Source of the DNA: an uncultured Spirochaetota bacterium
Lineage (GTDB): Bacteria; Spirochaetota; UBA4802; UBA5550
Assembly: GCA_963827275.1 (NCBI GenBank)
Contig: CAWHAA010000008.1
Location: forward strand, 96,001-160,000
Direction: 5' to 3'
Length of the DNA: 64,000 nucleotides
Part shown: positions 16,305 through 60,750 of the stretch, in pieces
How positions within the stretch are numbered: the first letter of the stretch is position 1
How the letters are laid out: each line of letters starts with the position of its first letter
Translations under genes and position numbers: made by a program
Notes under the pieces: generated by a model
Databases searched by the model: none
Told to the model about the DNA's origin: nothing
Seen by the model: only the letters and a program-made list of their open reading frames with translations

Positions 16305-19300
16305 ATGAATACGCCAGCCGCAGTAAAAAAAATCATGACCATTATCAGCGTGTTACTCCTGGGGGCAGGGTCCCTCGGTTGTAACGGGAAGGTTTTCAGC
16401 GCACTGCTTAATGATGATACTATTCCTTTTCTTGCAATGATCGCGCTGAACGGAGGCCCGAGTGTATCGTTAACCTCAACGCCGGTGATAAACATCGCGA
16501 ACGTTGGCGGATATTCGATTACCGGCGCCTGTTCCGAGGAGGGCCAGCCGGTAACGGTGGCGATCAGCGACGGCACGCTGACGGCAAGCGCGACGCCTCT
16601 CTGCACCTCCGGGACATTTACCGCAGATACGTGGTCTTCCCCGCTGAGCGGGCTTGCCGACAGCCCGACGATCCTGATCACCGCAGACCACGCGAGCGCC
16701 GAAGGAAGGGCCGCCCGGCAGGCCACTGCCACCGTGGTCAAGGACACGGCCGCCCCCGGGGTAACGATTTCCTCCACCGCGCCTCAGCCGACGAACCTGG
16801 CGATTCCGGTGACCATTACCTTTACCGAGAATGTAACCGGCTTTGAATCAACTGAAATAATCGTAGGCAACGGGACTGCCGGGAGCTTTACGGGAAGCGG
16901 GACAACCTATACGGCGATTATCACTCCTGCGGTCGATGGCCCGGTTACCGTTGATATCAATGCCGGGGTTGCGCAGGACGCGGCGGGGAACCCCAACACT
17001 GTCGCATCGCAGTTCACAAGGACCTATGATACGAGCAGTCTTCTCGTCTCTATTTCTTCAACCGCGTCTGACCCGACAAATGCGGTGATCCCGATCACGA
17101 TAACCTTCTCACGAAGCGTTACCGGATTTGAATCAACTGAAATAATCGTAGGCAACGGGACAGCCGGGAGCTTTGCGGGAAGCGGGACAACCTATACTGC
17201 AGTCATAACGCCTTCGGCCCAGGGAGAGGTGACGGTCGATATCAACGCGGCTGTAGCGGAGGATAGCCTGGGCTATCAGAACACCGCCGCTACCCAGTTC
17301 AGCATAACGTATGATTCGATACCGCCAACGGTAACCATCGGTTCGCCGAGCGACACGCTGATCAATTCGGCGCAGGAACACCATCTATCACCCTGACCTA
17401 TGACGTGGCGCCCACGGGCCTTGATTCAGGCGACATCCACGTGCCGGGGACCGGTGTACCTGCTCCGATGTCGATTGACGAACGCGACGACCGACACGCC
17501 CGATGTGCGGATATCCGGCTGCACGGGGAATGGATCGTTAACGATAACGGTCGACGCCGGCACGTCGCAGGACGCTGCGGGCAATTCTGACCTTGGCGAC
17601 AGCACGAGCGATTCCGTCACCGTGGACAACACACCGCCGACCATAACCTCGGTAGCGACAGCAAAGATAGACGGCACCTACACCATCGGGGAAGTCATCA
17701 ATATTGCGGTTGTATTCAGCGAGACGGTGACCCTGGCGGGCGCGGGCGGGACCCTTGATGTTGCCCTGAACAGCGGTGCGACCCTGAATGTGCCGACTTT
17801 CTCGGGAACATCCACTGACATAAATTACACGGTAGCGGCGGGCGAGTCCACGCCGGTATCGACAGCGCTGGACAGCTCCGGCATCAGCCTGGGCGGCGGC
17901 GCAACTCTCGTTGACGCGGCGGGGAACGCGATTTCAAGCTTCACCCCAGATTCGAACATCTCAGCGACACGGACCATTTACATCGACGCGGTCCTTCCCG
18001 CGATCACCTCCGCTGAGACGATGGACGCGGACACCGACGGCAAGATCGATCACTACAGGGTGACCTTCAACAGGAACATCAACGACAGCACCTTTGTCGC
18101 GGGCGAGTGGTCCGTGGCCGGCTATGCCATCACGGGCCTTGACACGAGTGCGGCCGCGCCGATATCGGACGCCGCGAACGACACTGTACTGTACATAGCG
18201 TTCTCCGAGCTTGGCGGCACCGTGGGCGATACGGGGGCGAAGCCTGATCTGACCACTCCCGGAACATTAACCCTTGCGGATTTCCGCGGAAACCCGATGG
18301 CGGCGGTGCCTGATACCGATGATGTGATTGAAACCGACAGGGCGGCGCCGGTCATCATGAAAGCAACCGGTCAAACCGGGGTCAACGGCCTGTCGATAGA
18401 GTTTTCCGAGCAGGTTGACGCGAACGGTGCCGCCGGCGCATGCCCGGGCGGGGATGGTAATGACCTGACCGCTGGAAGCTTCGTGTATATCGATGACAGC
18501 GGCGATGGGGCCGGCAGCATAAGCAGCATGGGCAGCGACGCAACCGCGTGCAGCACGTCCGGGAACTACGCCGTAAACGTGATACTGAACGTGAACATGG
18601 AAACCAGCGACCTTGATGTTGACCATCTGGCCCCTGCCCTGAACGCAGTCCGCGACATGGGCGACAACCCGGCTGACAGCGGGAGGCAGGTCGCGGTCAC
18701 CGGTGCGGTATCGCCGTACGTGTACGACGTGTACCCGAATTTAAGGACCAAGATACGGGTGGCCTTCTCAGAGCCGGTTGACAATACCGCGGCGACAAAC
18801 GCGACCAGCGCGCTCAACCATGCGAACTATTCGCTTGCCGAGAACCCGGTGGAGTCCGGGTGCTCAGCCGGCGGCGGCGGCGCGGACACGGTCGCTATCG
18901 ACACCGCGACCCCCATCGTGGACGTCAACGGCGACGGCACGGTGTTCGAGCTCACGACCACGGCAACCCAGTGCGGATCGACGACCTACGAGCTGACCGT
19001 GGACCAGGCGATTATAGACCAGAATGACCACGTGGGGCTGGTCCCCCCGTACATCATGACCTTCCTGGGCAACGAACAGCTCAGGGTGGTGAGCGGTTCG
19101 AACCTCAGCATCAACTCCATGGTCGTCGTGTTCAACAAGGCGGTGGAGGCCGGGACCGGGGACGGCGGCGCCGAGCTTGCGACGCGGTACCATTTCAATA
19201 ACACCACCATCGGCTCAGCTCCGACGAGCGCGGTGCGCGGGTCCGCCCCGAACGCGAACCGGGTCACCCTGGGGACGAGCTTCTTCCAGAAGGCCCGCAC

Positions 19301-21149
19301 CTATGTGGTCATAGGCGCGAACGGCGACGACCTCTACGGATTTACCGAAGGAGGGGTCGGGGCTATCAAGACAACGACGAATGTTTCGGAAGGGGCTGAA
19401 ATTCCCCAGGAGAACCTGCAGGCCTATCCCAGGGACCGGGCGCCCTGGGTGGGTTACGGGACCCCCATCCTCAATCTTGACGACGGCCCGCTTTCAGAGG
19501 ACCCGTTCGCGGACACGTCCACGTTCGGCTACCTGGCGTCCTACGGGGGCAAGGTCTATATCGGCCCGAACAACCTGGGGAACGCCACGAGCCGCATGGA
19601 CCCTGACGCGAGCAACCCGGAAGTCGCCTACTTCCAGTTTGAGAAGGACACCTCGGGAACGACCGGCAGTGACGGCGAAACCAACCAGGCGAGCAACGAC
19701 GCTACCACCAGGGACGGCACTATAGCGGTGCCACCCTATGTTACCATCGGACATACGGGGTGTACCGCGGATACCGCGGACATAAATACCGGATGCGGGC
19801 CTGACAACGAGAACGGCAGGGGCGTGTTCAGCTCAGGCATGATCGGCTCGACCGAGTACATATTCCTCGGCGGCGCGCGCACCGTGCCGGACGGCGACGA
19901 CTACTACTGGTTCGATTACGTGTATTACACTTCCGGGACCGGCGACACGCTCACCTTTAATTACGTGGACATGGGGACCATCACCGGCACGGTGACGTCG
20001 GGACTCTCCTCCAACCTGCTCTTCAACGACCGCCTCCAGGTCGGCATGGCGAAATACAACACGAACGCGCCGGATTTCGGCAAGATCAATTTCTCAACCG
20101 GCAGCGCGCAGGGAGACTGCACGCCGGGCGCAAACTGCGACGCGACGGACAACTCATACGGCGACCGCTACTTCATAAACTGCATCGACTACTTCGGCGG
20201 TGTGGACCAGGCGGGTACGCAGAATACCTACACCAACTGGGCCTATTATGTCGGCGTTGACACGATGTATAATTTCCGGGGCAGGCTGTATGCGGCAAAC
20301 GGCGGCCACAATTCCCAGAACCATGACGGAGGCGTGATCCGCTCTGACGGGGCGAATTACGCGAATCCGACCGCATGCCCGTTTGATTCCGGTGATCATG
20401 AATGCACCGGCTCGCCGAACCGCTGCCCGGACTGGCTGGAGATCGCGCCGCGCACCCAGCAGGAATGGTACAACACGGATACCCCTGCGTCCCCGCGGTT
20501 CTCGCTTGAGCTGACCAAGACGGCTGACCTTATCCCGGGGGACAAGGCTTCGCCTGCCTTTGCCGAGTACGAGGGCAAGCTCTACATGATACGGAACACC
20601 TGCCAGACGGCGGCGACAGGATCGGGCGTTGACGGCGCCCAGCATTACACCGCGGGCTGTACCGTTGCATCATACACCTACGTTTCAACGGAAGTCCAGA
20701 ACCGGCAGCCGCAGCTCTGGGTGTGCACGCCGGGCACTACCGGTGATGCCGACGAGTGCGACGCCGGCGACTGGGCACTGGTGGACGACGCCACGCCTGA
20801 CGGCATCACGAACTTCGGCGACGCCGGCAACCACTCGATCACCATGGTGATGAAGAGCGGCAAGTACCTGTACGTGGGTCTGGACAATGTCAACGGCATA
20901 CAGGTATACCGGGTCAATACGGTTGCCGGGGTCCCGGTCGCCAGCCCGACCGAGGATGATTTCGAGCGGATAGGCACCGGCGTGCCCGGCATTGACGGCG
21001 ATATGTACAAGGAGATCTATTCCTACATCTCGATACCCGGCACGGGCATCTATTCGAACTATTCCTTCCTGTATATAAGCGCGGGAAAGAATTCCACGCC
21101 GGTTGCGATCTTCATCGAGATGGGCGGAAACACCGCTCCCTATGAATAG
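16305..21149 (+). CDS. Large surface lipoprotein with Ig-like repeats and a LigB/LigC-like C-terminal region; frameshifted near 17375-17480
   Basis: Lipobox SLGC; tandem Ig-like domains (ITFTENVTGFESTEIIVGNG x2); C-terminal motifs VTIGHTGC, GCGPDNENGRGVF, NAPDFGKI, LYAANGG, FSLELTK, RQPQLW, TNFGD. Split into ORFs 16173-17396 and 17400-21149 by small indels. Confidence 0.75.
16833..17198 (+). repeat. Near-identical ~80-bp intragenic direct repeat (285-bp period) from an Ig-domain duplication
   Basis: TTTGAATCAACTGAAATAATCGTAGGCAACGGGAC..GGGAAGCGGGACAACCTATAC at ~16842 and ~17127. Confidence 0.85.
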
Positions 21150-24617: not shown

Positions 24618-25403
24618 ATGCCTGACAGGATCGCCGTTTTCGCACGGGAGATATCGGTGGAGGCGGGTGAGATCCTCCTGCGGGGATTCAGGTCTGACCG
24701 CACCGTTGTTTCCTACAAGAGCAGGACCGACCTTGTCACCGATAGCGACAGGGCGTCCGAGGCCCACCTTGTCGCCAGGATCGCGGAACACTTTCCCGAC
24801 CACGCCATCATCGCCGAGGAGGGGAGCCGGAAGGACGCAGCAGGCGGGTATGTCTGGTTCGTGGACCCTCTCGACGGCACGAATAATTTTGCGCACGGGC
24901 TCCCTTTTTTTTGTGTTTCCATCGGCGTATTTTCAACAGAGATGCAGAAGGTCGTCGCCGGCGTGGTATACAATCCGTTCCTGGGCGAGATGTTCACCGC
25001 GGTCAGGGGCGGCGGCGCGTTCCTGAACGGGGCGCCGATTCATGTCTCGTCGATCGGCGATATCGGCATATCGCTGGTCGCGACCGGCTTTCCCTACGAC
25101 AAGGCCGTGTCGGAAAACAACAACCTGAAGGAATTCAACCGCATCATTCTGCGTATCCAGGGAATACGGCGTATGGGGTCCGCGGCCATTGACCTCTCCT
25201 ACGTTGCGTGCGGCAGGCTCGACGGCTACTGGGAAGGGAAGCTCAATCCCTGGGACATGGCAGCCGGGAGCCTTATCGTGGAGGAAGCGGGCGGGCGCGT
25301 GACCCGTTATGACGGCGGACAGTTCCACCCTGAGTTCCCTGAAGTCGTTGCCTCAAATGGCAAAATCCATCACCAGCTGATTGAGCTATTGTCATCAAAG
25401 TAG
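24618..25403 (+). CDS. suhB: Inositol monophosphatase family protein
   Basis: DLVTDSD, AEE, WFVDPLDGTNNF, RRMGSAA, WDMAAG. Confidence 0.93.
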   Translation: MPDRIAVFAREISVEAGEILLRGFRSDRTVVSYKSRTDLVTDSDRASEAHLVARIAEHFPDHAIIAEEGSRKDAAGGYVWFVDPLDGTNNFAHGLPFFCVSIGVFSTEMQKVVAGVVYNPFLGEMFTAVRGGGAFLNGAPIHVSSIGDIGISLVATGFPYDKAVSENNNLKEFNRIILRIQGIRRMGSAAIDLSYVACGRLDGYWEGKLNPWDMAAGSLIVEEAGGRVTRYDGGQFHPEFPEVVASNGKIHHQLIELLSSK

Positions 25404-25404
25404 T

Positions 25405-25420
25405 TTATTGTATACAATAA
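25405..25420. promoter_or_regulatory. 16-bp perfect palindrome (putative operator) upstream of the PilZ-LuxD operon
   Basis: TTATTGTATACAATAA, with TATCAT at 25430. Confidence 0.5.
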
Positions 25421-25611
25421 CCCTTCCTGTATCATTATTTTAAAATTGTCTCCATTTTTGAATTTCTGGAACCGAACATTAAATATATATCTTCGATTGA
25501 GCAAGACCTTCCGGCCAATCATTGCTGAATGCCGATGAAGGTGCGGGGATCACAGGCAGTGAAGAGATACATGTATCTGACCTGTAAAAAAGGTCCGGGC
25601 CACGGTGACAG

Positions 25612-28600
25612 ATGAGCAACAAGAGGAAGCATATCCGGGTTGCGTACAATAAAAAGGTCAGGCTTTTCTCGGACGAGCATACCTTTGAAGCACAATCCAT
25701 CAATATCAGCAACAGCGGGATCCAGGTCCGTACCAGCATACTCTCGCACGAGGTGGATGTAGAGCGTATTTCATTGACCCTCCCATCTAATGATGACGCC
25801 ATCCATATCCCCTGCAGAATTGTCAGGAGCCACACCGGCCTTCCGGGAGAGGATGGACACGTGCTCGGACTTGAATTTTCCTATCAGACCGAGGCCGAAA
25901 TGGCACTCGTCGGCAATTTCATCAAGGAGATGAAAAGCTCCCAGCTCGCTGACGACCGCAGTGCTGCCGAGATGAGGATCATCCCGCGCACATCATGCCA
26001 AATTGAGAATGTCGCCTGCAGCAAGCCCGGCGTGGCAATATGTTCTATCGACAATATATCCACGGACGGGTGCCTTGTCAGTTATGAGGGCGAACTCCAC
26101 ACCCATGAACCGATTGAGATTGAATTTTCCCTTCCGGGAGATTCTCAGGTGATTGCCATCCGCTGCAGCGTCGCGTATGCAATGAACAATTATTTTAACA
26201 ATGTCAGCAGGGCCGGCATGTGCTTCGGCGCTATTCGGGACCTCGACAGGATCAAGATATATAATTTCATAGTAAAATCAGCCTCCTCGTCATCTGTCAA
26301 GATTGTCCAGGAACGCAGATATGAAAACATCATCGGGCTTGAGTACCGGATATGCGAGCCGAAGCGTATTGAAGCGCTCTTCGGCCGAATAAAAAAAGAG
26401 AAAAAAAGCATCAATGTTCTTTTTGAAAACAATGCAGGCATGTTCGATGTTGTGCCGACTGATTTTTTTCCGGGCGACCGGTTTGTCACCACGAGACTTA
26501 ACGTCGATAACCGCACATTACACCTGAAACGGTTTCATACCGTGTACTGCTCGGTTATCATCCACGGGGACAGCTATTATTTCAACAGTGAGCTCCTTGA
26601 GCGAGGTGATGAGCAGATGGTGCTCTCCTTCCCTGACACAGTGTATCATTCGGAGAAACGGTCGCATGACAGGAAACCGCTCGGCGGCATGGTCGATTTC
26701 GTCATGATGACGGGCGGCTCGTCGTCTGCCCGGCTCCCCGGCAGGCTTGTCAACATCAGCAGGCGCGGGTTTCTATGCGACTTTCCCCCCGGGAACCTGG
26801 AGCGCGACCTCCTTAAAACCGGACAGGAGGTGTCGTATTTTTTCGGCAAGGACATGGGACTGGCCAATTTTGGCGAGATACGCCACTTGAAAGAAGTGGT
26901 CGGCGATGACGGGCAGATCAGCCTGCAGGTGGGGATCGAGGCGGGGATCAGACGCTCGGAGTTCCAGTTTAAAAAAATATCCTGTTCGCAGTGGAAGAAG
27001 CAAAAGCAGAAACATCCGAAGCGGCCCACGCGTGTACGGGACAGCATGATGCCGGACATCGTCCGGTATGAAAACAGGAGCGGAAGGGAGCTCGTCGCCC
27101 TCCTCAATTATACGAGACTGGGAATAGAATCTCCCGTTGTAATCCTGCCGCCCGCGTTCGGGAAAAAGAAGGAGACGCTGTCGCCGCTGGTGGTGACGCT
27201 ATTTGAAAATTTCATGCACGCGGCCAAAGATGTTATAACCATCCGGTACGATGGCATCAACAGGCCCGGCGAAAGTTATAATGAAGACATGTGCCCGAAG
27301 CGCGGATATGAAATGCTCCATTACCGCATCAGCCAGGGAAGGGACGACCTCGAGGCGACCCTCGATTTCGTGTGCAACAATGACCTCTTCAGGCCTTCAG
27401 CGGTCATCGTGGTCGCGTTCAGCATGTCGGCGATGGACGCGAGAAAGCTGATCATGGAGGACGGAAGGGTGGACTACCTCGTCAGCGTCATGGGAGCGAC
27501 CTGCGCGCGAAGCGCGTTCCGGAACATCACCGGCGGCATTGATATTATCGGGAACTCGCGCATAGGGATTGAAAACGGGGTCTCGGGCGTTCTCGGCCAG
27601 ATCCTGAACCTTGACACGACCGCGCGCGACCTGATCGATAATAAGTATGCCTACATAGCTGACGCACGATATGACATGACGAAGATCGGGATCCCGGTAT
27701 CCTGGATATACGGCAAATTTGACCGGTGGGTCTCCGAGGCAGAAGTCAGGGACATCATGAGCGTCAGGTCCAGCGGCAGGCGCGAGGTAATAGAGATACC
27801 GACAGGCCACAATCTCCGCTCCAGCGAGGACGCGATAAAGGCATTCAAGATCATCGCCGCGCTGATTTTCCGGCAGCTCTACGGGAAGACCATCCGTCCC
27901 TTCGACCCTGACCGGGACGCCATGATTGACCTGATCACCTACGAGCGGGAGCGGCATGCGGCAGACGATGGCATCGACATGCAGGGCTACTGGAAAAATT
28001 ATCTTCTCGGGGAGAAAAAGAACGGCGCCGGCTATGACTTCTATCGAAACCTTGACGAATTCAGGGAGTTCCTGTCTTTTCAGGGGTCCCTCGTTGACCT
28101 GAGGGACGGGGAGCTCATGGCGGACATGGGCTGCGGTACCGGCATCTTTTTTGAGAGGATGATCGCGGACAGGGCGGCCCGGGGCATTGACCTGTCAAAC
28201 GCGCAGGTAGATCTTGTGGACCTTGTACCGGAGGCGCTCGCCCGCGCCAGGGAGAAGTTCGCGGTGCTGAAAAAGATCCACGGGAGCCGGTTGCCGGAGA
28301 GGGTGAATTATATCCAGATGAACCTGGAGCCGAACCGCCTGCTCCCGGTGAAGAGGTTAATTGAGGACAGGGCGCTTGATGTCACGTTCCTGAAAAACCG
28401 CGTGGAAGGATTAAAAAACACGGTCGTGGAACGCCTGGCAGGCCTCGGATACGGCCGGCTCGGCGATATTCTGCGCGGCGGGGCCATAACAGATGACGAC
28501 GACGTATATTTTAACGAGCACGTGAACGGCGAGGAACGCCGGGTCATTTATGATTTGAACCGGGCCGCGCGGTTGTTAACGGGGAATCTCGGGCCATCCG

Positions 28601-29157
28601 ATTTTAAAAAAGGGAAGATGGTGCGGGACAATGTCCGGGAAAACGGCCGACGGGAGCTGCGCGCGGCTGATATCGATTTCAAGGAACTTGTTTTCGGCGA
28701 CCGGGGGCTTGACCTTTCCCTGGATTTCAGGGAAAAGAGGTATGATAAAATAGCGGCGAGCCTGCTCATCAGCTATCTTTTTAATCCCGATGAAATTATT
28801 TTTGATTTTTTCCGCATATTGAAGCCGGGCGGGCTGCTGCTTGTTTCATCGATGAAGCCGGACAGCGACATCTCCGTAATATTTACGAATTATATAAATA
28901 AAGCCAGTGAATTGGAGCGGGAAAAAACCGCGGACATCGGCCCTGAGACCGACCTCGTCAGCGCGCGGGCGATGCTGAATGAAGCGGCATCGCTCTTCCA
29001 GCTTGAAGAGGACGGGTTTTTCAGGTTTTATACCGGGGAGGACCTCGCCGGCATGATGAGGAGGGCGGGCTTTATTGATATAACAATCAATATGTCCATG
29101 GGTGATCCTCCCCAGGCGGTGATCGTTACCGGCACGAAGCCCGGCGGCACCGGATAA
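25612..29157 (+). CDS. Multidomain protein: 3x PilZ (with a YcgR-like linker), LuxD-like acyl-ACP thioesterase/acyltransferase, class I SAM methyltransferase
   Basis: PilZ motif pairs RKHIR/NISNSG, RIIPR/NISTDG, RSHDR/NISRRG. Hydrolase motifs PPAFGKKKE, IRYDG, AFSMSA, FDRWVSEAEV, TGHNL. Methyltransferase motifs DMGCGTG, VDLV, YDKIAASL, LKPGG. Confidence 0.75.
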   Translation: MSNKRKHIRVAYNKKVRLFSDEHTFEAQSINISNSGIQVRTSILSHEVDVERISLTLPSNDDAIHIPCRIVRSHTGLPGEDGHVLGLEFSYQTEAEMALVGNFIKEMKSSQLADDRSAAEMRIIPRTSCQIENVACSKPGVAICSIDNISTDGCLVSYEGELHTHEPIEIEFSLPGDSQVIAIRCSVAYAMNNYFNNVSRAGMCFGAIRDLDRIKIYNFIVKSASSSSVKIVQERRYENIIGLEYRICEPKRIEALFGRIKKEKKSINVLFENNAGMFDVVPTDFFPGDRFVTTRLNVDNRTLHLKRFHTVYCSVIIHGDSYYFNSELLERGDEQMVLSFPDTVYHSEKRSHDRKPLGGMVDFVMMTGGSSSARLPGRLVNISRRGFLCDFPPGNLERDLLKTGQEVSYFFGKDMGLANFGEIRHLKEVVGDDGQISLQVGIEAGIRRSEFQFKKISCSQWKKQKQKHPKRPTRVRDSMMPDIVRYENRSGRELVALLNYTRLGIESPVVILPPAFGKKKETLSPLVVTLFENFMHAAKDVITIRYDGINRPGESYNEDMCPKRGYEMLHYRISQGRDDLEATLDFVCNNDLFRPSAVIVVAFSMSAMDARKLIMEDGRVDYLVSVMGATCARSAFRNITGGIDIIGNSRIGIENGVSGVLGQILNLDTTARDLIDNKYAYIADARYDMTKIGIPVSWIYGKFDRWVSEAEVRDIMSVRSSGRREVIEIPTGHNLRSSEDAIKAFKIIAALIFRQLYGKTIRPFDPDRDAMIDLITYERERHAADDGIDMQGYWKNYLLGEKKNGAGYDFYRNLDEFREFLSFQGSLVDLRDGELMADMGCGTGIFFERMIADRAARGIDLSNAQVDLVDLVPEALARAREKFAVLKKIHGSRLPERVNYIQMNLEPNRLLPVKRLIEDRALDVTFLKNRVEGLKNTVVERLAGLGYGRLGDILRGGAITDDDDVYFNEHVNGEERRVIYDLNRAARLLTGNLGPSDFKKGKMVRDNVRENGRRELRAADIDFKELVFGDRGLDLSLDFREKRYDKIAASLLISYLFNPDEIIFDFFRILKPGGLLLVSSMKPDSDISVIFTNYINKASELEREKTADIGPETDLVSARAMLNEAASLFQLEEDGFFRFYTGEDLAGMMRRAGFIDITINMSMGDPPQAVIVTGTKPGGTG

Positions 29158-29192
29158 AACTATTCTGATCATGACAAAAAGAAAATCATGCT

Positions 29193-30578
29193 ATGAACAT
29201 CACAGATAAAATTTTTGAATCTTTGAGCGCGTGGGGTGAACACCCGGCGTTCATCGATCTTGTCCCCGGCCGGCCGCCGGCGTATATATCCGCATCGGAT
29301 TTCAGCGCGACCGTGCAGGACATAACCGGCGTTCTGAAAAAACACGGGATACGGAACGGCTTCATCGTGGCCCTTTTTTTGAACAACTCGATGGATTTTA
29401 TTTCAGTTTTTATCGCGCTGCTCGGCATCGGCGCAAAGCCGGTCCCGGTCAACATGGCGTTCCGGAAGGTCGAGCTTGACGAAATATTCGCCAATGCCGA
29501 CCCGCACGCGGTCATTACCGAGCACGATCACCTGCCTTTCATCCAGGCGTACCTGGAGGGGAAGATTGTCATTCAACGAAATCGGGGGAAACTGCTCCTG
29601 CACGACGCCGGCGCGGGACGCAGGGATCCGGCGGAGCTGGGTGATGACATCGCGTCGGTCAATTACACCTACCGCGGTTACGGGTACCCCCTGGGCGCGC
29701 TGGTGCCGCACGGCCAGTATCTCGCGGGGGCCGATTTCCTTGAAGCGGCGGTGCAGCTTGAGCGCGGCGAGCGGATAGTGGTGATACTGCCGATGCAGCA
29801 TATCTACACCCTGATCGGGTGCGTGTTCCTGCCCCTGCTGTACGGTGTAACACCGGTGATTTCATACACCAGGAACCCGCTGCGGCTTTTCGAAGCGGTC
29901 CGCGAACACGGTATTCACCATGTCCTGGCGGTGCCGGAGGTGTATGAGCTTTTTTTAAAGCTGCGCGAGGGGGCTGGCGATATCCCTCAGATGAAGGCCT
30001 TTCTTTCCGGCGGGAGCGTCCTGCCGCGTGAGAATTATACGCGGCTGATGGAGGAGTTCAACGTGGACCTGATCCACGGGTACGGCCTGACCGAATTCAC
30101 GCCGGTGAGCAGGAACATCAGGGGCGTCATTCGGCCCGGAACAATCGGTAAAGTCAGCGATGGAGTCGAGTGCAAAATTGACTCCCCGGATGCGAACGGC
30201 TCCGGTGAGATCATGATTAAGACCAAGGACATGGCACGGCACTACTATAAAAGACCTGCCGAGACCCGTGAGGCATTTGACGGCGGGTGGTTCAGGACGG
30301 GTGATATAGGGAAACTCGAGAACGGCCACCTGTTGTTTGAAAGGGAGAAAAAGGGGACCAGGAAAATCAAGGGCAACATGGTGGATCTCGAGGAGATTAA
30401 AAAGGCAATGGAATTGATGAAAGGTGTTCGTGAAGCACGGATTGCCGGTAGTAATAATATGCTTTCAGCTGAAATTGAATTTGATGGATCGGATCAAATT
30501 GACACAATAAAAATTAAACAATATTTAGAGAATATACTTTCTGTGAATAAAATTCCCCAGAACATTTCAATCATATGA
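29193..30578 (+). CDS. AMP-binding (acyl-CoA/acyl-ACP ligase-like) protein with a degenerate P-loop
   Basis: LPMQHIY, GYGLTE, WFRTGDIG and KIKG present; A3 loop reads YTYRGYGYPLG; ends before the A10 lysine. Confidence 0.8.
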   Translation: MNITDKIFESLSAWGEHPAFIDLVPGRPPAYISASDFSATVQDITGVLKKHGIRNGFIVALFLNNSMDFISVFIALLGIGAKPVPVNMAFRKVELDEIFANADPHAVITEHDHLPFIQAYLEGKIVIQRNRGKLLLHDAGAGRRDPAELGDDIASVNYTYRGYGYPLGALVPHGQYLAGADFLEAAVQLERGERIVVILPMQHIYTLIGCVFLPLLYGVTPVISYTRNPLRLFEAVREHGIHHVLAVPEVYELFLKLREGAGDIPQMKAFLSGGSVLPRENYTRLMEEFNVDLIHGYGLTEFTPVSRNIRGVIRPGTIGKVSDGVECKIDSPDANGSGEIMIKTKDMARHYYKRPAETREAFDGGWFRTGDIGKLENGHLLFEREKKGTRKIKGNMVDLEEIKKAMELMKGVREARIAGSNNMLSAEIEFDGSDQIDTIKIKQYLENILSVNKIPQNISII

Positions 30579-30608
30579 TTATAAATAAGGAAAATAGTAA
30601 ATAATATA

Positions 30609-30866
30609 ATGAAGACATTGGACCATGTAACTATTGTTAAAAAGATCATTTCGAAAATTACCAAATTTGATGAAGCTGATTTATCTAGCAATATTCTTCT
30701 CAGGGAAGAACTCGGTATTGATTCGATAATGGCCATGGAGATCATGGTAAATATTGAACGAACCCTTGAAATAAAAATCGAAGAAAAAAAATTACAAACT
30801 GTTAAAACAATTAAAAATTTAACAGATTTAATAAAGGAGGAAATGTCATTACAACGAAAAAGTTAA
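30609..30866 (+). CDS. Acyl carrier protein
   Basis: ELGIDSIMAMEI phosphopantetheine motif; 85 aa. Confidence 0.9.
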   Translation: MKTLDHVTIVKKIISKITKFDEADLSSNILLREELGIDSIMAMEIMVNIERTLEIKIEEKKLQTVKTIKNLTDLIKEEMSLQRKS

Positions 30867-32167
30867 AAATATGCCTGATTTCACCCAAGGGCCATTTATT
30901 AATACGCAATGAATTATTTTCTGAATTTGTTAAAAACTCGCGTGAAATGGCAACATATATGCACTATTGGTCGGGCCTCAGTGTCGCACTTGCAACTATC
31001 GCGGGATTGACTCCCCGGCAGCATGATGTGGTGATTATTGATGAAAACCAGGAAAAAATAAATTTTACCGACTATTATGATTATGACATAATAGGTATTA
31101 CTTCTATGACTCAGACGTCCCTTCGTGCATATGAAATTGCCGATGAATTCAGGGGGAAAGGTCTCTTCGTTGTAATTGGCGGTATTCATGCAACTGTCTT
31201 ACCGGAAGAAGTAAAGAGCCACGCTGATGCGGTTTTTATCGGAGAAGCTGAAAATACATGGCCACAGTTCATAAATGATTTTATCGGAGGTTCTCCAAAA
31301 CAAATTTACAATCAGAAAAATTGTCCTCCCATACAAATGGAGACAATGCCGACACCAAGATTTGATCTGGTTGCCCGTTATAAATATCCCGTTGTGTGGA
31401 TGCAGACAACAAGGGGTTGCCCTCATGATTGTGAATTCTGTGCGGCATCTGTTATATATGGGCGCAATTATAAACATAAAAATATTGAACAGGTTGTTGC
31501 AGAAATAAAAGAAATTAAGAGACACTGGAAGTTTGCACAAATTGGATTTGCTGATGACAATATGTTTGTAAATAGGGAATTTTCGCGGAACCTGATATCA
31601 AATTTTACTAATTTAAATTTCAACTGGTTTGCCCAGACTGATATATCTATAGGCAATGATGAAAAATTTTTAGATTTATTAAAAGAAAACGGCTGCAAGT
31701 ATCTTTTTATTGGATTTGAAGGAACATCAAAAAACAGGCTTGAGAAATTGAATACTAATAATTGGAAGGCAAAAAAATTTGATGATTATAAAATATATAT
31801 TGATAAAATACAGCGAAAAGGTATAGGTATATTCGGTTCTTTTATCCTGGGTTTCGATGAAGATGATGAAAGTATTTTTAATGATACAATATCTTATATA
31901 AATGATAATAATTTATTAGGTGCTTCAATAACAATATTAACTCCATTCCCGGGAAGCCGTCTAAGAGACAGAATGCAGTCTGAAAATAGAATTATGCATG
32001 ATGACTGGAGTTATTATACGGCATGGAACGCGGTCATAAGGCATAAGAACATGAAACCTGAAACGCTTGAAGATGGATTAATGAAGGTCTATTCAGGTAT
32101 TTATAATGACAGGACATATCTTAAAAGAGCAAAATATTTCAAAACAATATTAGAGAGTAATCTTTAA
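30848..32167 (+). CDS. Cobalamin-binding-domain radical SAM enzyme
   Basis: KICLISP N-terminal strand, GGIHAT, GEAE, TTRGCPHDCEFC, FADDN, GFE, FILGFD, TPFPGS. Start inferred at ATT 30848 (ORF track uses ATG 30947). Confidence 0.88.
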   Translation: MTTKKLKICLISPKGHLLIRNELFSEFVKNSREMATYMHYWSGLSVALATIAGLTPRQHDVVIIDENQEKINFTDYYDYDIIGITSMTQTSLRAYEIADEFRGKGLFVVIGGIHATVLPEEVKSHADAVFIGEAENTWPQFINDFIGGSPKQIYNQKNCPPIQMETMPTPRFDLVARYKYPVVWMQTTRGCPHDCEFCAASVIYGRNYKHKNIEQVVAEIKEIKRHWKFAQIGFADDNMFVNREFSRNLISNFTNLNFNWFAQTDISIGNDEKFLDLLKENGCKYLFIGFEGTSKNRLEKLNTNNWKAKKFDDYKIYIDKIQRKGIGIFGSFILGFDEDDESIFNDTISYINDNNLLGASITILTPFPGSRLRDRMQSENRIMHDDWSYYTAWNAVIRHKNMKPETLEDGLMKVYSGIYNDRTYLKRAKYFKTILESNL

Positions 32168-32169
32168 CA

Positions 32170-34740
32170 ATGAATGCAGATCAAAGTTTATCCTTGTTTA
32201 AAGAATTTAATGAGGAAATGAGAGTAATATGCAATGACATGGTGAAACGAGCCATGATTATCGGCATGATTTTATTTCCTATTTTTGGAATCTTGGATTA
32301 CTTTGTTGTTAAAGAAAATCTATCAACTATTTTGCTGATAAGAGGGATTACGGTCGTTCTCTATTTGTTGATATATTTTTTATGCCATTTTGCATTTGGC
32401 AAACGATATGCATTAAATCTTGGAATGGCCGCTTTTTTAATTACCGGGATATCAATAACCATTATGATTCATATGACCGGCGGTTATGAAAGTACATACT
32501 ATGTTGGCTTGAATATAGTACTTTTCGCGATGTATATATTACTGCCGTTGGATATTAAGAGAGGCATTATTGCCGCAACTTTTTTGTATTTAATTTATAT
32601 CGTCCCAATTATTGTTAAAGGTAATATTGCCAATGTTCCTATCCTGATAAATAATAATTTTTTCTTGCTCGCTATTACTGTAATATCATTGGCTTCTCTT
32701 TATTATAATAATAAAATAAAGTACGATGAATTTTCGGCACGTCATAAGATTCAGAAGGCAAACGAAGACCTTGAAAAGCTCACCGACGAACTCGCCGAGA
32801 CCAACCAGAAGCTCCTTACCCATGACCGGCTGAAGACGGAATTCTTCACCAACGTCAGCCACGAGCTTCGCACGCCGCTCACCCTTATCCTTGCTCCCCT
32901 GAAGCCGCTGATCGAGGGGAATTCCGGTATCCTTCCCCCCGTGGTGAAGGAGACCCTGGTGGCCATGCAGAACAACGGCCACCGGCTCCTGAAGCAGATC
33001 AACAACCTCCTCGATTTTTCCAAGCTGGAAGCGGGGAAGCTGCGCCTTAATATCGAAAACATCGACCTCATAGGGTTCTGCAAGGACATCATCAGCGCCA
33101 TGCAGCACGCGGCCACCACCCGCGGCCTCAAGCTTTATTTCCAGTACCAGATGGGGGACCCGATCAAGGTGATGATTGATGCCGAGCAGTTTGAAAAAGT
33201 AATAATGAACCTTCTCCACAATGCCATAAAGTTCACGCCGCAGGGCGGGCGGATCACCCTCTTTCTCGACGAGCGCGATGATGACGTCGAGCTGGTTGTC
33301 CAGGACACGGGGGTGGGCATACCTGAAAACATGCTGGAAACGATCTTCGACCGCTTCGCCCAGGTCGACGGGTCATCGACGCGGAGCAACGAGGGGACGG
33401 GGCTGGGCCTTTCCCTCGCGAAAGAGATCGTGGAGCTGCACGGCGGCGAGATCCGGGCCGAAAGCGTGCAGGGGAAGGGCTCCCGCTTCATCGTGCGGGT
33501 TCAGAAGGGCGAACGCCATATCGGCGAAGATATCCGTGAACGGCGGAAATCGGAGCAGCCGGTGCAATACAAAAAGCGCGCGAGCGACGCCGAGGGCCTC
33601 AAGGTCAGCGACGTGGTGAGCAATTACCGCGACCTCCAGCTCATCGACCTGGAACAGAAGGCCGAGATTGCGACCAGGGAACTCCGGCAGGGGACGCATG
33701 AATACACCCTGCTGGTCATCGACGACAATCCCGACATACTGAAGCTGATGCATTTTCTCCTGAACGACGAGTTTGACCTGATTCTCGCCGGCTCCGGGAA
33801 GGAAGGGCTGAAAGCGTTGCGGGAAAAGAAGCCGGACCTGGTCATCTGCGACATGATGATGCCGGAGATGGACGGCAACAGCTTCTGCCGCGAGGTCAAG
33901 TCTGATCCTGACCACCGGCACATCCCGATCATAATGGTGACCGCGCGCGCCGGTTCGGAGATGCTGGTCGAGGGCATTAATTCCGGCGCCAATGATTACC
34001 TGGCCAAACCCTTCGATGTGGCGGAGCTCAAGGCCAGGGTGCGTTCCCTCCTCCGGACGCGGACGATGGAGGAGGCGCTCGCCCTTGCCAACCAGAACCT
34101 CAAGATCAGGACCGACGACCTGGTGGAGCGCCAGCGCCTGCTCCTTCATTCAACGGTGAAGTCGCTTGTCTCCACAATAGAGGCGAAGGACAATTACACC
34201 AAGGACCACTCCCTCAGGGTAAGCAAGTATTCCATCGCCATAGCGAAAAAAATGGGATATGCCGAGCACGAGCTCAATGACCTGGAGCTGGCGGCCCTCC
34301 TCCACGATGTCGGCAAGATAGCCGTGCCGGAGGACATCCTCCACTATAACGGCAAGCTGACCGAGGAGGAATTCGGCCATATAAAAAACCATCCCGCGAA
34401 CGGCGCGCAGATCATCAGGCCTATCACCGAGTTCAAGAGCGTCGCGTCGATCGTCATCGCTCACCATGAGCATTATAACGGCAAGGGGTACCCCTTCGCC
34501 CTGTACAAGGACGACATCCCCCTCGGCGCGCGCGTCATGGCGGTCGCCGACGCCTATGACGCCATGACGTCAGAGCGTCCCTACCGCGCCGCGCTCTCCC
34601 ACAATTACACCGTCAAGGAGATCGTCCGCTGCTCCGGCACCCAGTTCGATCCCGGGATCGTCGATGTGTTCCTGACTATCCAGGACAAGCTCGGCGAGAT
34701 ACGGAGCAATGACATACAGGGACATGACATGACCAATTGA
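32170..34740 (+). CDS. Hybrid sensor: membrane domain, HisKA, HATPase, REC, HD-GYP c-di-GMP phosphodiesterase
   Basis: About six TM helices with GGYESTYYVGL and NNNFFL; SHELRTPL; NAIKF, DTGVG, GTGLGL; DD..D..KP; LLHDVGK, HHEHYNGKGYP, ADAYDAMTSERPYR. Confidence 0.9.
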   Translation: MNADQSLSLFKEFNEEMRVICNDMVKRAMIIGMILFPIFGILDYFVVKENLSTILLIRGITVVLYLLIYFLCHFAFGKRYALNLGMAAFLITGISITIMIHMTGGYESTYYVGLNIVLFAMYILLPLDIKRGIIAATFLYLIYIVPIIVKGNIANVPILINNNFFLLAITVISLASLYYNNKIKYDEFSARHKIQKANEDLEKLTDELAETNQKLLTHDRLKTEFFTNVSHELRTPLTLILAPLKPLIEGNSGILPPVVKETLVAMQNNGHRLLKQINNLLDFSKLEAGKLRLNIENIDLIGFCKDIISAMQHAATTRGLKLYFQYQMGDPIKVMIDAEQFEKVIMNLLHNAIKFTPQGGRITLFLDERDDDVELVVQDTGVGIPENMLETIFDRFAQVDGSSTRSNEGTGLGLSLAKEIVELHGGEIRAESVQGKGSRFIVRVQKGERHIGEDIRERRKSEQPVQYKKRASDAEGLKVSDVVSNYRDLQLIDLEQKAEIATRELRQGTHEYTLLVIDDNPDILKLMHFLLNDEFDLILAGSGKEGLKALREKKPDLVICDMMMPEMDGNSFCREVKSDPDHRHIPIIMVTARAGSEMLVEGINSGANDYLAKPFDVAELKARVRSLLRTRTMEEALALANQNLKIRTDDLVERQRLLLHSTVKSLVSTIEAKDNYTKDHSLRVSKYSIAIAKKMGYAEHELNDLELAALLHDVGKIAVPEDILHYNGKLTEEEFGHIKNHPANGAQIIRPITEFKSVASIVIAHHEHYNGKGYPFALYKDDIPLGARVMAVADAYDAMTSERPYRAALSHNYTVKEIVRCSGTQFDPGIVDVFLTIQDKLGEIRSNDIQGHDMTN

Positions 34741-57722: not shown

Positions 57723-58088
57723 TGTAACTTAACTTTACAGATCACCGCCAGGCCAAAGGCCCGGATCCCGGCGATGGGGCAGGGGAGCGCCGGAGGCGCG
57801 TGCGGGGGGGCGGCAAGGGGGAGGGGGCGGAAAAAGCCCGCGAGCCGCCGGGGGGCGATTGATGAATGCCTGGATTACTAAAGATTATTAACGGAGATAG
57901 AGCCAGCGGGCATTTTTCTCATTCTGTCTTTGCCTATTTCAGAATGAAGAAAGGGCCGTGATAATCGATTTCTCTCGCTAATTCCCGAAAATTTATTGCT
58001 ATTTGAACATACCGCTGTTGTACTAATCCGCGGGTAGGCATTCTTTTCGACTTTTCATAAATTTTTCTCAATTTTCTCGGCGCTCGCG

Positions 58089-58138
58089 AAATTTTAAGCT
58101 TCTGTCCAGCGCTTTTTCTGCTGGAGGGGGGCACATTT
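58089..58138 (+). repeat. Palindromic repeat family A, copy 1
   Basis: Core CCAGCGCTTTTTCTGCTGGAGGGG shared with 58757, 60704 and 62995. Confidence 0.85.
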
Positions 58139-58217
58139 ACTAAGGGAGTATCTTGGAAAATAACGGTATGAATACGGTGATAATATACACCATATTTACT
58201 GTATTTGAGGTAACACT

Positions 58218-58733
58218 ATGAGAAAAATTTTAATTATTATTATAATATCTTTTTTCTTTGTGAATTGTAGTAAAAATGAAAACAAGGTATTCTTAATACA
58301 ACCAAAAGATATAATAGGAGTAACACAATCCTCGTTTTATTGTTATGGAAGATCATGGGATTTCCAAGAAAGTTTTAAACCTTTGATTGAGAATAATATT
58401 CTTTATTTGCATTTTAGGGGTTCCATCCGTGATGATTATACTTTTTGTTTTACATTGGAACCCTTTGAAAAACATCTTGATCCCAATCCAATAACTTTCA
58501 CAGGAAAAAAAAATATATCTATTGAATTAGAAAAAAAAATTGAAAAACAAATATCTTTTGACATCTCGATGACCAATGATAAATATTATATTTCCAGCCA
58601 ACGTATTGACGCAAAAAATACATTAAAAATCCAGATGCCATTGCCTTCAAATGGAAAGTCTATTAATAGTATTGTAATATTTTTTGTTGGGGAACCATGC
58701 ATAATAGGGATCAAGTCAATTTATCTGGAGTGA
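58218..58733 (+). CDS. AT-rich hypothetical lipoprotein
   Basis: GAGG RBS; lipobox FVNC; bracketed by family A repeats. Confidence 0.7.
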   Translation: MRKILIIIIISFFFVNCSKNENKVFLIQPKDIIGVTQSSFYCYGRSWDFQESFKPLIENNILYLHFRGSIRDDYTFCFTLEPFEKHLDPNPITFTGKKNISIELEKKIEKQISFDISMTNDKYYISSQRIDAKNTLKIQMPLPSNGKSINSIVIFFVGEPCIIGIKSIYLE

Positions 58734-58756
58734 TGGGACTGTCAGATATTTTGTGG

Positions 58757-58805
58757 AAATTTTGTGCCCCCCCAGCGCTTTTTCTGCTGGAGGGGGGGCT
58801 CTTTT
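58757..58805 (+). repeat. Palindromic repeat family A, copy 2
   Basis: AAATTTTGTGCCCCCCCAGCGCTTTTTCTGCTGGAGGGGGGGCTCTTTT. Confidence 0.85.
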
Positions 58806-58988
58806 GAGAGGGATACCCCTTCACATAAAACGCATTCAGCCGTATCATCCCTAGTACGATAAGGGCCTTTTCTTCTACGATAGAAACAGAGCCCACGACG
58901 GCCCTATACCCACCTAACGCTAGCACTGCAAACAATCGCAAGTACGGTTACCCCAGCCAGTGCCGAGGTCAATAACCAAAATATATAA

Positions 58989-60327
58989 GATAACGTATAG
59001 TATCTTTCGCACATTTTTCATGCAATAAAAAAGTCCTCTAACTGACGAAAATTAAATTACCACACTTAAAAACGTCAGGAGGAGGACTTTTATGAAAGCT
59101 GATAAGATTATCGAGGTGAACGAGGAAAAAATCAAGCAACATTTGGGAGAATTTGTCAGAGGAACTGTGGAAGAAACACTCAATACCCTGCTTGATGCCG
59201 AAGCAGATGCAATCTGTAATGCCCAGAAGTATGAGCATACAACTGAGAGAAAAGATACCAGGGCTGGCTATTATGAACGAAAATTTCATACTAAGGCTGG
59301 AGAAGTAAGCCTGAAGATGCCCAAACTGAGGACTTTGCCATTCGATACGGCGATCATTGAGCGATATAAACGGCGGGAAATCTCCGTAGAAGAATCATTG
59401 GTTGAGATGTACCTGGCCGGTGTATCGGTAAGGCGTGTTGAAGATATTACTGAGGCACTCTGGGGAACTAAGGTTTCGCCAGGCACCATAAGCAATTTAA
59501 ACAAGAAGGTATACCAGCATATTGAGACATGGCGGAATAGGAAGATTACAGGATCCTATGCCTACGTATATCTCGACGGCATATGGCTTAAGAGAAGCTG
59601 GGGTGGCGAAGTACGCAATATATCGGTGTTAATAGCATTTGGGGTCAATTCCGAGGGTTTCAGAGAGATTTTAGGGGTAGCCGAAGGAGCCAAAGAAGAT
59701 AAAGAGAGCTGGCAGGGATTCTTGCGCTATTTGAAAGATAGGGGTTTAACAGGCGTCCGGTTGTTTGTTTCCGATAAAAGCCTTGGTCTTGTCGAAAGCC
59801 TTGCCCATTTTTATCCTGAAGCAAAATGGCAGCGTTGTATTGTTCATTTCTATCGGAATGTATTTACTATGGTGCCTCATGGCAAGGTAAAGATGGTTGC
59901 TACGATGTTAAAAGCCATTCATGCCCAGGAGGACAAGCAGGCCGCCCGGGAGAAAGCCCGGAATGTGGTCGAGAAACTTAAACAAATGAAACTGCAAAAA
60001 GCTGCTGAACTGGTTTCTGAATCTATTGATGAAACATTGAGTTATTATGATTTCCCATATGAACACAGGAGAAGAATCAGGACCAATAATCCATTGGAAC
60101 GAATACTGAAAGAGGTGAGAAGACGTACTCGTGTTGTCGGAGCATTTCCTGATGGCGAATCGGCCTTGATGCTGGTCGCGGCTCGGCTGAGGTATATTGC
60201 ATCTTCTTCATGGGGTGCGAAAAGATATCTTAACATGGATCATTTGAAAGATTTACTCATTGATATAGCATAGGAATTAACGTCAGTTAGAGGAAAAAGA
60301 AAAAAGCGAAAGATTATTGACACTATC
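58989..60327 (+). mobile_element. IS256 family insertion sequence
   Basis: Imperfect TIRs GATAACGTATAGTATCTTTCGC / GCGAAAGATTATTGACACTATC; perfect 14-bp subterminal IR (59034-59047 / 60281-60294); no target-site duplication. Confidence 0.88.
59092..60273 (+). CDS. IS256 family DDE transposase
   Basis: EMYLAGVSVRRV, YLDG, GFREILG, WQRCIVHF, RTNNPLER..E.RRR. Confidence 0.95.
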   Translation: MKADKIIEVNEEKIKQHLGEFVRGTVEETLNTLLDAEADAICNAQKYEHTTERKDTRAGYYERKFHTKAGEVSLKMPKLRTLPFDTAIIERYKRREISVEESLVEMYLAGVSVRRVEDITEALWGTKVSPGTISNLNKKVYQHIETWRNRKITGSYAYVYLDGIWLKRSWGGEVRNISVLIAFGVNSEGFREILGVAEGAKEDKESWQGFLRYLKDRGLTGVRLFVSDKSLGLVESLAHFYPEAKWQRCIVHFYRNVFTMVPHGKVKMVATMLKAIHAQEDKQAAREKARNVVEKLKQMKLQKAAELVSESIDETLSYYDFPYEHRRRIRTNNPLERILKEVRRRTRVVGAFPDGESALMLVAARLRYIASSSWGAKRYLNMDHLKDLLIDIA

Positions 60328-60624
60328 TTGAAAAGCTTGAGCTGTTTGTTCCTCGTCTTCACGGGCTTGAACCAGCATGGCTCCTTCTTACGGACCGGAC
60401 GTATCGTTGGTTGAGCCCTGTCCCCTTTGACCCCGCTCAACACAAATGAACTGTACGTATTGGGAGCATTCAGCCGCATCACCCACTCGTCCTTATAGGG
60501 GACGGGCAGGGGTGACGTGATGCCGTGAACATTGAGATAGATGGCACGCATTTTCTGGACGTCCTCCCAGGTGCCGGAGTAGTCCTCGATGAAATTGTAC
60601 CGCTTATGAAAGCGATTTTCTTTA
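60328..60624 (-). pseudogene. Gene fragment truncated by IS256 and the 126-bp element
   Basis: Open frame KENRFHKRYNFIEDYSGTWEDVQKMRAIYLNVHG...KLFK, without its own start or stop between the two elements. Confidence 0.4.
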
Positions 60625-60750
60625 ACTTTCTAGGAATGTGCCCCCGCCTTAGAGTCGGCCCAGGTGACACAATGCTTTTTATCAGCAATTACTTCCTCTT
60701 AGATTAAGCCCCTCCAGCAGAAAAAGCGCTGGACAGGGGCTTAAAATTTA
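60625..60750. repeat. 126-bp element, copy 1 (contains family A hairpin in inverted orientation)
   Basis: Identical to 62916-63041. Confidence 0.9.

Follow-up and report, generated by a model that had tools for sequence, protein, structure and literature searches.

A candidate lipid-signalling operon with a PhcS-type sensor and an exchangeable low-GC cassette in uncultured Spirochaetota

The window analysed here is a stretch of 64,000 nucleotides from an uncultured Spirochaetota bacterium (GenBank assembly GCA_963827275.1, contig CAWHAA010000008.1, positions 96,001 to 160,000). Five open reading frames (ORFs) on its forward strand, within 25612–34740, are flanked by suhB and xseA. They encode a protein with PilZ, hydrolase and methyltransferase domains (gene 1), an adenylate-forming acid ligase (gene 2), an acyl carrier protein (ACP; gene 3), a B12 radical S-adenosylmethionine (SAM) enzyme (gene 4), and a protein that joins a membrane sensor to histidine kinase, receiver (REC) and HD-GYP domains (gene 5). 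This operon is real, conserved and undescribed in the literature searched, outside which lie most subscription journals. A low-GC cassette covering the middle of the operon, and ending inside gene 5, is exchanged as a block within and between species, and the sensor at its end is classified by sequence as PhcS-type. We read the operon as a new variant of Phc-like lipid signalling, namely a self-contained lipid autoinducer circuit with exchangeable specificity, and put the probability of this reading at roughly 0.6.

Lipid autoinducer signalling with dialects, in which strains would make and hear different variants, is the probable role of the operon. The fullest form of the proposal, which we hold at a little under even odds, is a quorum-sensing circuit of anaerobes in which cyclic di-GMP (c-di-GMP) gates synthesis, the receptor degrades c-di-GMP, and interchangeable B12 radical SAM enzymes, at work on a fatty acid bound to the carrier, write the identity of the signal. 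With each of these enzymes packaged with its own PhcS-type sensor, strains and phyla would switch lipid dialects by one recombination.

Recurrence of the operon and exchange of its cassette

Gene 1 was found at full length in nine of 16 same-genus genomes (among 40 relatives). All nine loci have the five genes in order behind suhB, followed by xseA in seven and by the contig end in two. A total of 77 related loci were collected, and the 44 that include at least 3.6 kb behind gene 1 are referred to here as long loci; redundant loci were kept. The ligase is present in 41 of the long loci, the ACP in 40, the sensor in 40 and the radical SAM gene in 35, and all four are present in 34. The initial annotation had named a lack of co-occurrence in other genomes as grounds for abandoning its idea of a signalling system. 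The genes do co-occur, both in the nine same-genus loci and in the 34 long loci. However, the radical SAM enzyme, which had been counted as part of a five-gene set, is not core but optional, and its gene lies before the ACP gene, before the ligase gene or divergently upstream, or is missing.

Close gene 1 homologues are from organisms named as Spirochaetota metagenome-assembled genomes (MAGs), and others are from Desulfobacula, Desulfotignum and Anaerolineales. A Desulfotignum MAG contains the same gene set, in which there are apparent frameshifts and REC-HD-GYP has its own gene. The cultured Desulfotignum phosphitoxidans DSM 13687 also encodes a gene 1 homologue (P0034), which is labelled ‘tRNA-specific adenosine deaminase TadA’ by NCBI and UniRef, apparently a mis-annotation. 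In genome samples, gene 1 was found in eight of 401 genomes of its own phylum, all from one genus, and in two of 401 in the phylum of genome G404; these samples undercount gene 1, because metagenome relatives carry the names Spirochaetales, Spirochaetia and Anaerolineales. Behind gene 1 in L077 (13525–14262), L080 (7603–8346) and L083 (13498–14235) there is a gene for a 4'-phosphopantetheinyl transferase (PPTase), and the ligase, ACP and sensor are all absent within 10 kb.

The cassette is marked by its base composition. The GC content falls from about 0.57 to 0.29–0.35 over the ligase tail, the ACP, the radical SAM gene and the sensor, and recovers inside gene 5, and the GC content at third codon positions is 0.28–0.33 in the cassette versus 0.69–0.81 in the flanking genes. 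This drop was missed by the initial annotation. The right breakpoint is codon 186 of gene 5, the end of the last membrane helix.

The nine same-genus loci share a kinase core that is 73–92% identical, yet their ACPs, radical SAM enzymes and sensors fall into separate types. L014 and L019 are 60% identical in gene 1, 82% in the radical SAM enzyme and 85% in the sensor, and the corresponding values for the window and L012 are 74%, 43% and 40%. Approximately unbiased (AU) tests on the nine loci ruled out (p < 0.001) the cassette clades on the trees of the core and of gene 1, and likewise ruled out (p < 0.001) the five-species core clade on the trees of the radical SAM enzyme, the sensor and the ACP. 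The split between the window and L012 was rejected on the radical SAM tree only. There were 32 close pairs, four of them with no usable radical SAM sequence; the remaining 28 comprise 15 with high identity in both the radical SAM enzyme and the sensor, 13 with low identity in both and none that is mixed, though these pairs are not independent and represent about five separate swaps by our count. Among 38 dereplicated loci, two radical SAM types each keep one sensor type (7/7 and 3/3) in gene 1 backgrounds that are unrelated, Desulfobacula-like loci among them.

Exchange within the species was examined using contigs of four metagenome runs from four studies, and the long contigs recovered were mostly 97–99% identical to the window. 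Depth collapsed over approximately 30418–32726 in all four runs, and the allele found in the window was on short contigs with low depth. One contig of 3838 bases bridges the slot with other DNA, departing from the window at 30418, sharing 23 letters with it in the radical SAM gene and returning at 32726. A contig from a second run also loses the match at 30418, and two contigs end at 32726. A ligase from the same species in the databases, P0325, is a near-exact match to that of the window up to residue 310, and is 94% identical to it over residues 1–408 versus 30% over the last 53. The ligase tail is altered in some swaps and unchanged in others. A transposon-like origin of the cassette was considered and is unsupported, with no terminal repeats among the repeats listed.

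This block fits the layout of a pherotype cassette, as it is hypervariable, includes maturation genes together with the sensor end only of a kinase, and is polymorphic within a species. The comQXP block of Bacillus subtilis and the agrBDC block of Staphylococcus have the same extent, signal-maturation genes plus only the sensor end of the kinase. However, the signals of those systems are peptides and no part is homologous, and the enzyme that varies here is a B12 radical SAM protein, accompanied by an ACP. ComQXPA polymorphism splits isolates into privately communicating pherotypes (PMC12935306, in excerpt).

The sensor thus travels with the tailoring genes and not with its own kinase, as would be expected of a cognate signal–receptor pair. 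An alternative, to which we give only a slight chance, is that the sensor is a passenger. It would read an unrelated cue, its exchange along with the ACP and the radical SAM gene would be due solely to the kinase core being the closest conserved anchor for recombination, and the product would be a secondary metabolite under c-di-GMP control. The absence of terminal repeats among those listed fits such plain homologous exchange. Several further observations count against a cognate pair. As the cassette genes are contiguous, linkage alone predicts their co-transfer. Deep pairing is not one-to-one, as one sensor clade is found with two radical SAM types and four sensor groups share a single radical SAM type, and of the sister sensors of L069 and L072 one is accompanied by a radical SAM gene and the other is not. 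Over 31 loci, in which kin are not independent, the correlation of the sensor is stronger with the kinase core (r 0.46) and the ACP (0.49) than with the radical SAM enzyme (0.21, p 0.003). The groups used in the AU tests were chosen after the identity tables had been seen. However, sensors of the same allele equal gene 1 in conservation (0.86–0.95 in the closest pairs), which indicates distinct alleles and not merely fast evolution. The sensor and the ligase also remain together in 40 of the 44 long loci regardless of the order of the other genes, and homology to PhcS predicts a lipid ligand. Under the autoinducer reading, the observed joint exchange of the ACP, the radical SAM gene and the sensor domain takes place by recombination in the conserved flanks, and strains would therefore make and hear different variants.

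The gene 5 receptor and its relatives

Gene 5 carries every kinase, receiver and HD-GYP motif. The phosphodiesterase motif is given as HD plus HHExh[D/N]GxGYP (bioRxiv 2021.11.05.467447, in excerpt), and gene 5 of the window has both elements. REC-HD-GYP is encoded by a separate gene in three of 33 loci and in L024. The possibility of a pseudokinase arose when a search pattern missed 24 of 38 H-boxes, and was dropped as the histidine is present in 38/38.

The membrane sensor has six transmembrane helices (6TM), and its best plasmid match is in an operon of Paraburkholderia graminis with proteins whose clusters are named 3-OH PAME (methyl 3-hydroxy-palmitate) biosynthesis protein, PhcS and PhcQ. 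The homology is to the N-terminus of the PhcS kinase, whose gene follows that of the 3-OH PAME synthase. Comparison with P. graminis WP_114158448, which is not Ralstonia PhcS itself but belongs to a 90% cluster named PhcS, gave an hhalign value of 98.7% (E 4e-16, 202 columns). A hidden Markov model (HMM) made from the operon's sensors alone matches the same protein over positions 8–199 of 200 (E 3e-22), and a search with it of all six-frame ORFs in the genome that includes the window found gene 5, strongly, and one other ORF at E 0.002. A membrane sensor of a signal-receptor type, as proposed in the initial annotation, is supported by this homology. MASE8 (PF20968) matches four of nine homologous sensors (best E 3e-5), that of the window not among them, and the top atlas hit is MASE8 at 0.96. 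The literature searched contains only passing mention of MASE8. LvrA, the top NCBIfam match for gene 5, was rejected as a relative of the sensor, as the match spans residues 191–646 only; LvrA contains a PAS domain but lacks membrane segments (PMC5863495, in excerpt).

An alignment of the sensors gave no sequence match in the PDB, and Foldseek gave none for the sensor at E 0.001 or better. In the predicted model, its fold resembles the 6TM bundles of ImcA and the adenylyl cyclases AC5 and AC9, with Z 15–16 versus 10 for the next row. The 6TM domains of CqsS/LqsS and the adenylyl cyclases are alike in having six short helices and short loops, though a fold held in common does not reveal a ligand. 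CqsS is a receptor for a lipophilic autoinducer and is able to drive a cyclase (PMC4821796, in excerpt).

An unlikely alternative reading is that the 6TM domain monitors a modified membrane lipid, or another acyl product that stays bound to the cell, in the producer's own membrane and tunes c-di-GMP, with no cell-to-cell signal. The sensor loops are short, lipid regulation is discussed for the adenylyl-cyclase/ImcA bundles (PMC12414865, in excerpt), many B12 radical SAM genes and ACPs are present in the genome, and in one locus (L049) the next gene encodes an acyltransferase. However, ancient alleles with 30–45% identity are kept within one species, which is a better fit to social selection than to homeostasis. 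The combination of a ligase, a carrier and a release and capping enzyme suits a small free product, and the closest of the characterised homologues is a sensor of a diffusible ester. PhcB makes 3-OH PAME or 3-OH MAME (methyl 3-hydroxy-myristate), which PhcS is thought to perceive, with recognition described as unresolved (PMC13532016 and PMC6989110, both in excerpt). The excerpt of PMC11960443 contains no ligand-site detail.

Of 301 genomes sampled in the phylum, 43 contain a member of the PhcS-type sensor family. When the best locus outside the operon was taken from each genome, a PhcB-like ORF was found within 1.5 kb of the sensor gene in 11 of 23 loci, and in hand-picked wider regions a PhcB-like gene was found in 11 of 16. 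The output domains of sensor-family proteins vary. A phc-like module seems, from these sequences, to be common in the phylum. The initial annotation knew of no such system in spirochaetes. This agrees with the literature searched but not with the genomes, in which phcB-like genes lie beside PhcS-type sensors elsewhere in the phylum. No paper joining PhcB and Leptospira was among the matches listed. Acyl-homoserine lactone (AHL) has reportedly been recorded for Leptospira (PMC13515436).

In other Spirochaetota genomes, PhcB-like methyltransferase genes adjoin PhcS-type sensors in L129–L134, L136, L138–L140 and L144. Of three such sensors examined in L129, two are fused to a SpoIIE phosphatase and one to Hpt/HATPase domains. 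Two small uncharacterised ORFs (~170 and ~124 aa) often precede these pairs. Solo PhcS-type sensor genes, with a SpoIIE fusion in L142, were found in L142 and L143 among genes that look like those for fatty-acid synthesis (an ACP match in L143 and ketosynthase-like starts). In the genome that includes the window, a PhcB-like gene (E 1e-32; G000:C7:263470–264723, L158) overlaps a gene for a membrane protein outside the PhcS-type family, and is possibly a second methyl-ester system.

Gene 1, the tailoring enzymes and the proposed circuit

The gene 1 protein was aligned with 81 of 120 listed homologues (82 rows), and its AlphaFold model has a pLDDT of 81.6 and a pTM of 0.69. The motifs of the second and third PilZ domains are retained in 81–82 of 82 rows. 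The arginines of the first are present in 71/71 rows having this domain, which is missing in 11. Foldseek matches for the PilZ region include the c-di-GMP-bound structures 3kyf and 2rde, and c-di-GMP binding is predicted from the intact motifs. PixB of Myxococcus xanthus, for which c-di-GMP binding was shown, likewise joins PilZ domains in tandem to an enzyme of acyl chemistry (PMC8316039, in excerpt). However, the PixB enzyme is an acetyltransferase rather than a hydrolase and methyltransferase, and no signal–receptor operon is described in that excerpt.

The best structural match for the hydrolase domain is LuxD, the myristoyl-ACP thioesterase of Vibrio harveyi (1THT; Foldseek E 4e-12; Z 28.8, root-mean-square deviation 2.8, 276 aligned), which has the same Ser-Asp-His arrangement but only 16% identity. 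In a wide structure alignment of the model, the next esterase after 1THT had Z 25.5, and feruloyl and other esterases had Z 24–25. S604, D704 and H733 are invariant (82/82 rows). In the window gene 1, the hydrolase was not called by Pfam and the NCBIfam LuxD model NF052253 gave 14 bits versus a cut-off of 420 (E 0.021); PF02273 was found in some homologues. A sequence search of the domain against the PDB found no match, whereas fold searches did. Unlike LuxD, the domain sits between PilZ and methyltransferase domains, and no luciferase or reductase genes are present in the locus. Stand-alone forms of the hydrolase gave 12 matches, which were close relatives and many of them on short contigs, in a length-limited search that is not evidence of absence. 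In the methyltransferase, D838, G840, G842 and G844 of the SAM motif are invariant (82/82 rows), and O-, C- and S-methyltransferases match its fold within approximately 1 Z unit (Z 20–21).

The gene 2 ligase matches PF00501 (E 6e-47), and FadD13 is the nearest solved structure (E 2e-33). The usual P-loop of such ligases is TSGTTGxPKG, whereas residues 157–167 (29661–29693) read YTYRGxGYPLG, and this form is strongly conserved among the operon's ligases (38 loci). The unusual loop is a family signature and may reflect altered chemistry. The gene 3 ACP (PF00550, E 2e-12) has Ser39 in GIDS, with ELGxDS conserved. The B12-binding domain and the radical SAM domain with CxxxCxxC in gene 4 fit the cobalamin-dependent (class B) radical SAM enzymes, and no named NCBIfam radical SAM subfamily was at cut-off among the 25 matches listed. 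Gene 4 probably begins at ATT 30848, giving 439 aa, because this codon is 7 nt behind AAGGAGG and the frame there resembles the N-termini of homologues. With this start, the gap between genes 3 and 4 turns into an overlap. It may also explain the junction in place of a frameshift; no indel was listed at the junction in the four metagenome runs, for which cover is thin there.

As a lipid autoinducer circuit, the operon would operate as follows. The ligase would activate a fatty acid and load the private ACP, and the B12 radical SAM enzyme, where present, would modify the chain held on it, most probably through methylation at an unactivated carbon. The LuxD-type domain of gene 1 would move the acyl chain off an ACP, and the methyltransferase, by analogy with PhcB, would cap the acid as a diffusible methyl ester. 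The three PilZ domains, with c-di-GMP, would switch gene 1. The product would enter the membrane, bind the 6TM domain and change autophosphorylation at His231, transfer to Asp561 and c-di-GMP hydrolysis by HD-GYP, so that the loop would close on gene 1 with either sign. Because gene 1 and the private ACP are not exchanged together, the hydrolase could instead work upstream on the housekeeping ACP, as LuxD does, rather than releasing the product. A pattern search of the genome found at least eight GGDEF-like and at least eight HD-GYP-like ORFs, and c-di-GMP signalling is therefore in place.

The steps could also be ordered in reverse, which we consider improbable. The hydrolase would act first, on a housekeeping ACP, or would cleave foreign methyl esters, and the operon would import, edit or quench the signals of other species, with the sensor eavesdropping. 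RpfB-type ligases degrade fatty-acid signals, several esterases are close behind LuxD in the structure alignment, and the ligase tail, but not gene 1, often travels with the private ACP, which gene 1 may never touch. However, an order with supply upstream would still yield a self-made signal and would leave the function the same. Quenching also leaves unexplained a tailoring step that uses up SAM and B12 and is fused to the loading of a carrier, as well as the PPTase genes that adjoin gene 1 in three loci.

Beyond these alternatives, some findings weigh against the proposed autoinducer circuit. The gene 1 methyltransferase was rejected as a PhcB orthologue (BLASTP E 0.25; a profile match of 63 columns at the SAM motif, 70%), and, as O-, C- and S-methyltransferases matched about equally, its acceptor atom is not assignable. 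Three gene 1 loci have no ligase, ACP or sensor nearby. The HD-GYP domains of 33 gene 5 homologues (L036–L087) include 13 with HHE, 19 with HQE, a conserved variant, and one that is cut off. The sensor family comprises 4077 clusters and is also found on phosphatases, chemoreceptors and cyclases, and in 12 of the 23 sensor-family loci examined in the phylum there is no PhcB-like ORF within 1.5 kb.

The operon is like Phc (phcBSRQ; Ralstonia, Cupriavidus and Paraburkholderia) in the homologous 6TM sensor on a histidine kinase, the SAM methyltransferase upstream in the operon and a likely, here predicted, fatty-acid-derived ester. It differs in that the methyltransferase is fused to PilZ and a LuxD-type hydrolase and is not orthologous to PhcB, in the addition of a private ligase, an ACP, a B12 radical SAM enzyme and the exchangeable cassette, and in an output that is a fused HD-GYP, then xseA, where Phc has separate PhcR/PhcQ and PhcA. 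The Rpf/diffusible signal factor (DSF) system of Xanthomonas (RpfF, RpfB, RpfC and RpfG) uses a fatty-acid signal, an acyl ligase in the cluster and a membrane kinase feeding a REC-HD-GYP phosphodiesterase. The output from kinase to REC-HD-GYP is alike in architecture and motifs only. However, no crotonase-type RpfF was found among the listed Pfam and NCBIfam matches of the five genes, the kinase and HD-GYP are usually one protein, and predicted c-di-GMP-binding domains are on the synthase. Judged by the sequence of its synthase, the operon belongs to neither the Phc nor the Rpf family. In the literature searched, no description was found of PilZ, LuxD and a methyltransferase in quorum sensing, or of a cobalamin radical SAM enzyme, an ACP and a histidine kinase in fatty-acid quorum sensing.

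If the proposal is true, the uncultured spirochaetes and sulfate reducers that inhabit sediments and bioreactors have a cell-to-cell signal, and its synthase is of a type not described for any autoinducer in the literature searched. In the allelic series, several B12 radical SAM enzymes that are so far uncharacterised each come with a defined carrier and a readout already built in, which makes their chemistry testable. Matched sensor alleles would be natural ligand–receptor pairs for a 6TM domain of the kind for which ligand recognition is unresolved in PhcS (PMC13532016, in excerpt). The mammalian adenylyl-cyclase anchors, which have no mapped ligand site (PMC12414865, in excerpt), share this fold.

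Gene layout and surroundings

Coordinates of the operon, its domains and adjacent features in the window
Feature	Position	Strand	Description
suhB	24618–25403		Inositol_P
Promoter candidate, sigma70-like	25389–25418	+	TTGTCA-18-TACAAT, 5' of gene 1; 10/12 consensus positions; weak (29 sites in region versus 12 expected)
Gene 1	25612–29157	+	1181 aa; PilZ, PilZ, YcgR-like barrel plus PilZ (aa 1–445), LuxD-type alpha/beta hydrolase, class I SAM methyltransferase
Three PilZ domains	25618–26946	+	RxxxR and D/NxSxxG pairs intact; R5/R9, R122/R126, R350/R354
LuxD-type thioesterase/acyl-transferase domain	27043–27960	+	Triad S604-D704-H733
Class I SAM methyltransferase	27973–29145	+	~140-residue helical insert; motif I DxGCGTG
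Gene 2	29193–30578	+	461 aa; adenylate-forming acid ligase
Low-GC specificity cassette	30418–32726 (approx.)		Ligase C-terminal tail, ACP, radical SAM gene, sensor domain only
Gene 3	30609–30866	+	85 aa; ACP
Gene 4	30947–32167 from first ATG (406 aa), likely 30848–32167	+	B12 radical SAM enzyme
Gene 5	32170–34740	+	856 aa; sensor-histidine kinase-REC-HD-GYP protein
Exchangeable membrane sensor domain	32170–32726	+	aa 1–186; model pLDDT 93
Gene 5 parts			6TM PhcS/MASE8-type sensor; HisKA H231; HATPase; REC D561; HD 712–713; HHExxxGxGYP 765–775

The five co-oriented genes, with the domains named by the initial annotation, were recovered from the ORF list and by Pfam and structure comparison. Pfam calls were PilZ and methyltransferase (gene 1), AMP-binding (gene 2), PP-binding (gene 3), B12-binding and Radical_SAM (gene 4), and HisKA, HATPase_c, Response_reg and HD_5 (gene 5). 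NCBIfam was also used, and the gene beyond gene 5 scored above the cut-off for TIGR00237 (xseA). Catalytic motifs are intact in all five genes, and the intergenic distances are 35 bases (genes 1 and 2), 30 bases (genes 2 and 3) and 2 bases (genes 4 and 5). The feature had been annotated as beginning at 25405, but gene 1 starts at 25612.

The description of the operon as inserted is a fair one, as suhB and xseA are 0.3–2 kb apart in three of five tested same-genus genomes that do not contain gene 1; in the other two they are on separate contigs. In two same-genus genomes without the operon, the slot between suhB and xseA holds an unrelated PAS-like/HD-GYP gene (L145, 299–1303; L151, 3386–4264), read from the sequence. 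Because of this gene, the site may be one that collects c-di-GMP genes.

Elsewhere in the window, there is a second low-GC stretch at 58001–64000 (GC 0.35–0.44), in which 59092–60273 is presumably a transposase-like ORF and 62057–62998 presumably a primase/polymerase-like ORF. This stretch is probably a mobile island. An ORF of 1249 aa at 17400–21149 is rich in Gly, Thr, Asp and Cys, with repeats that look Ig-like, and probably encodes a surface protein.

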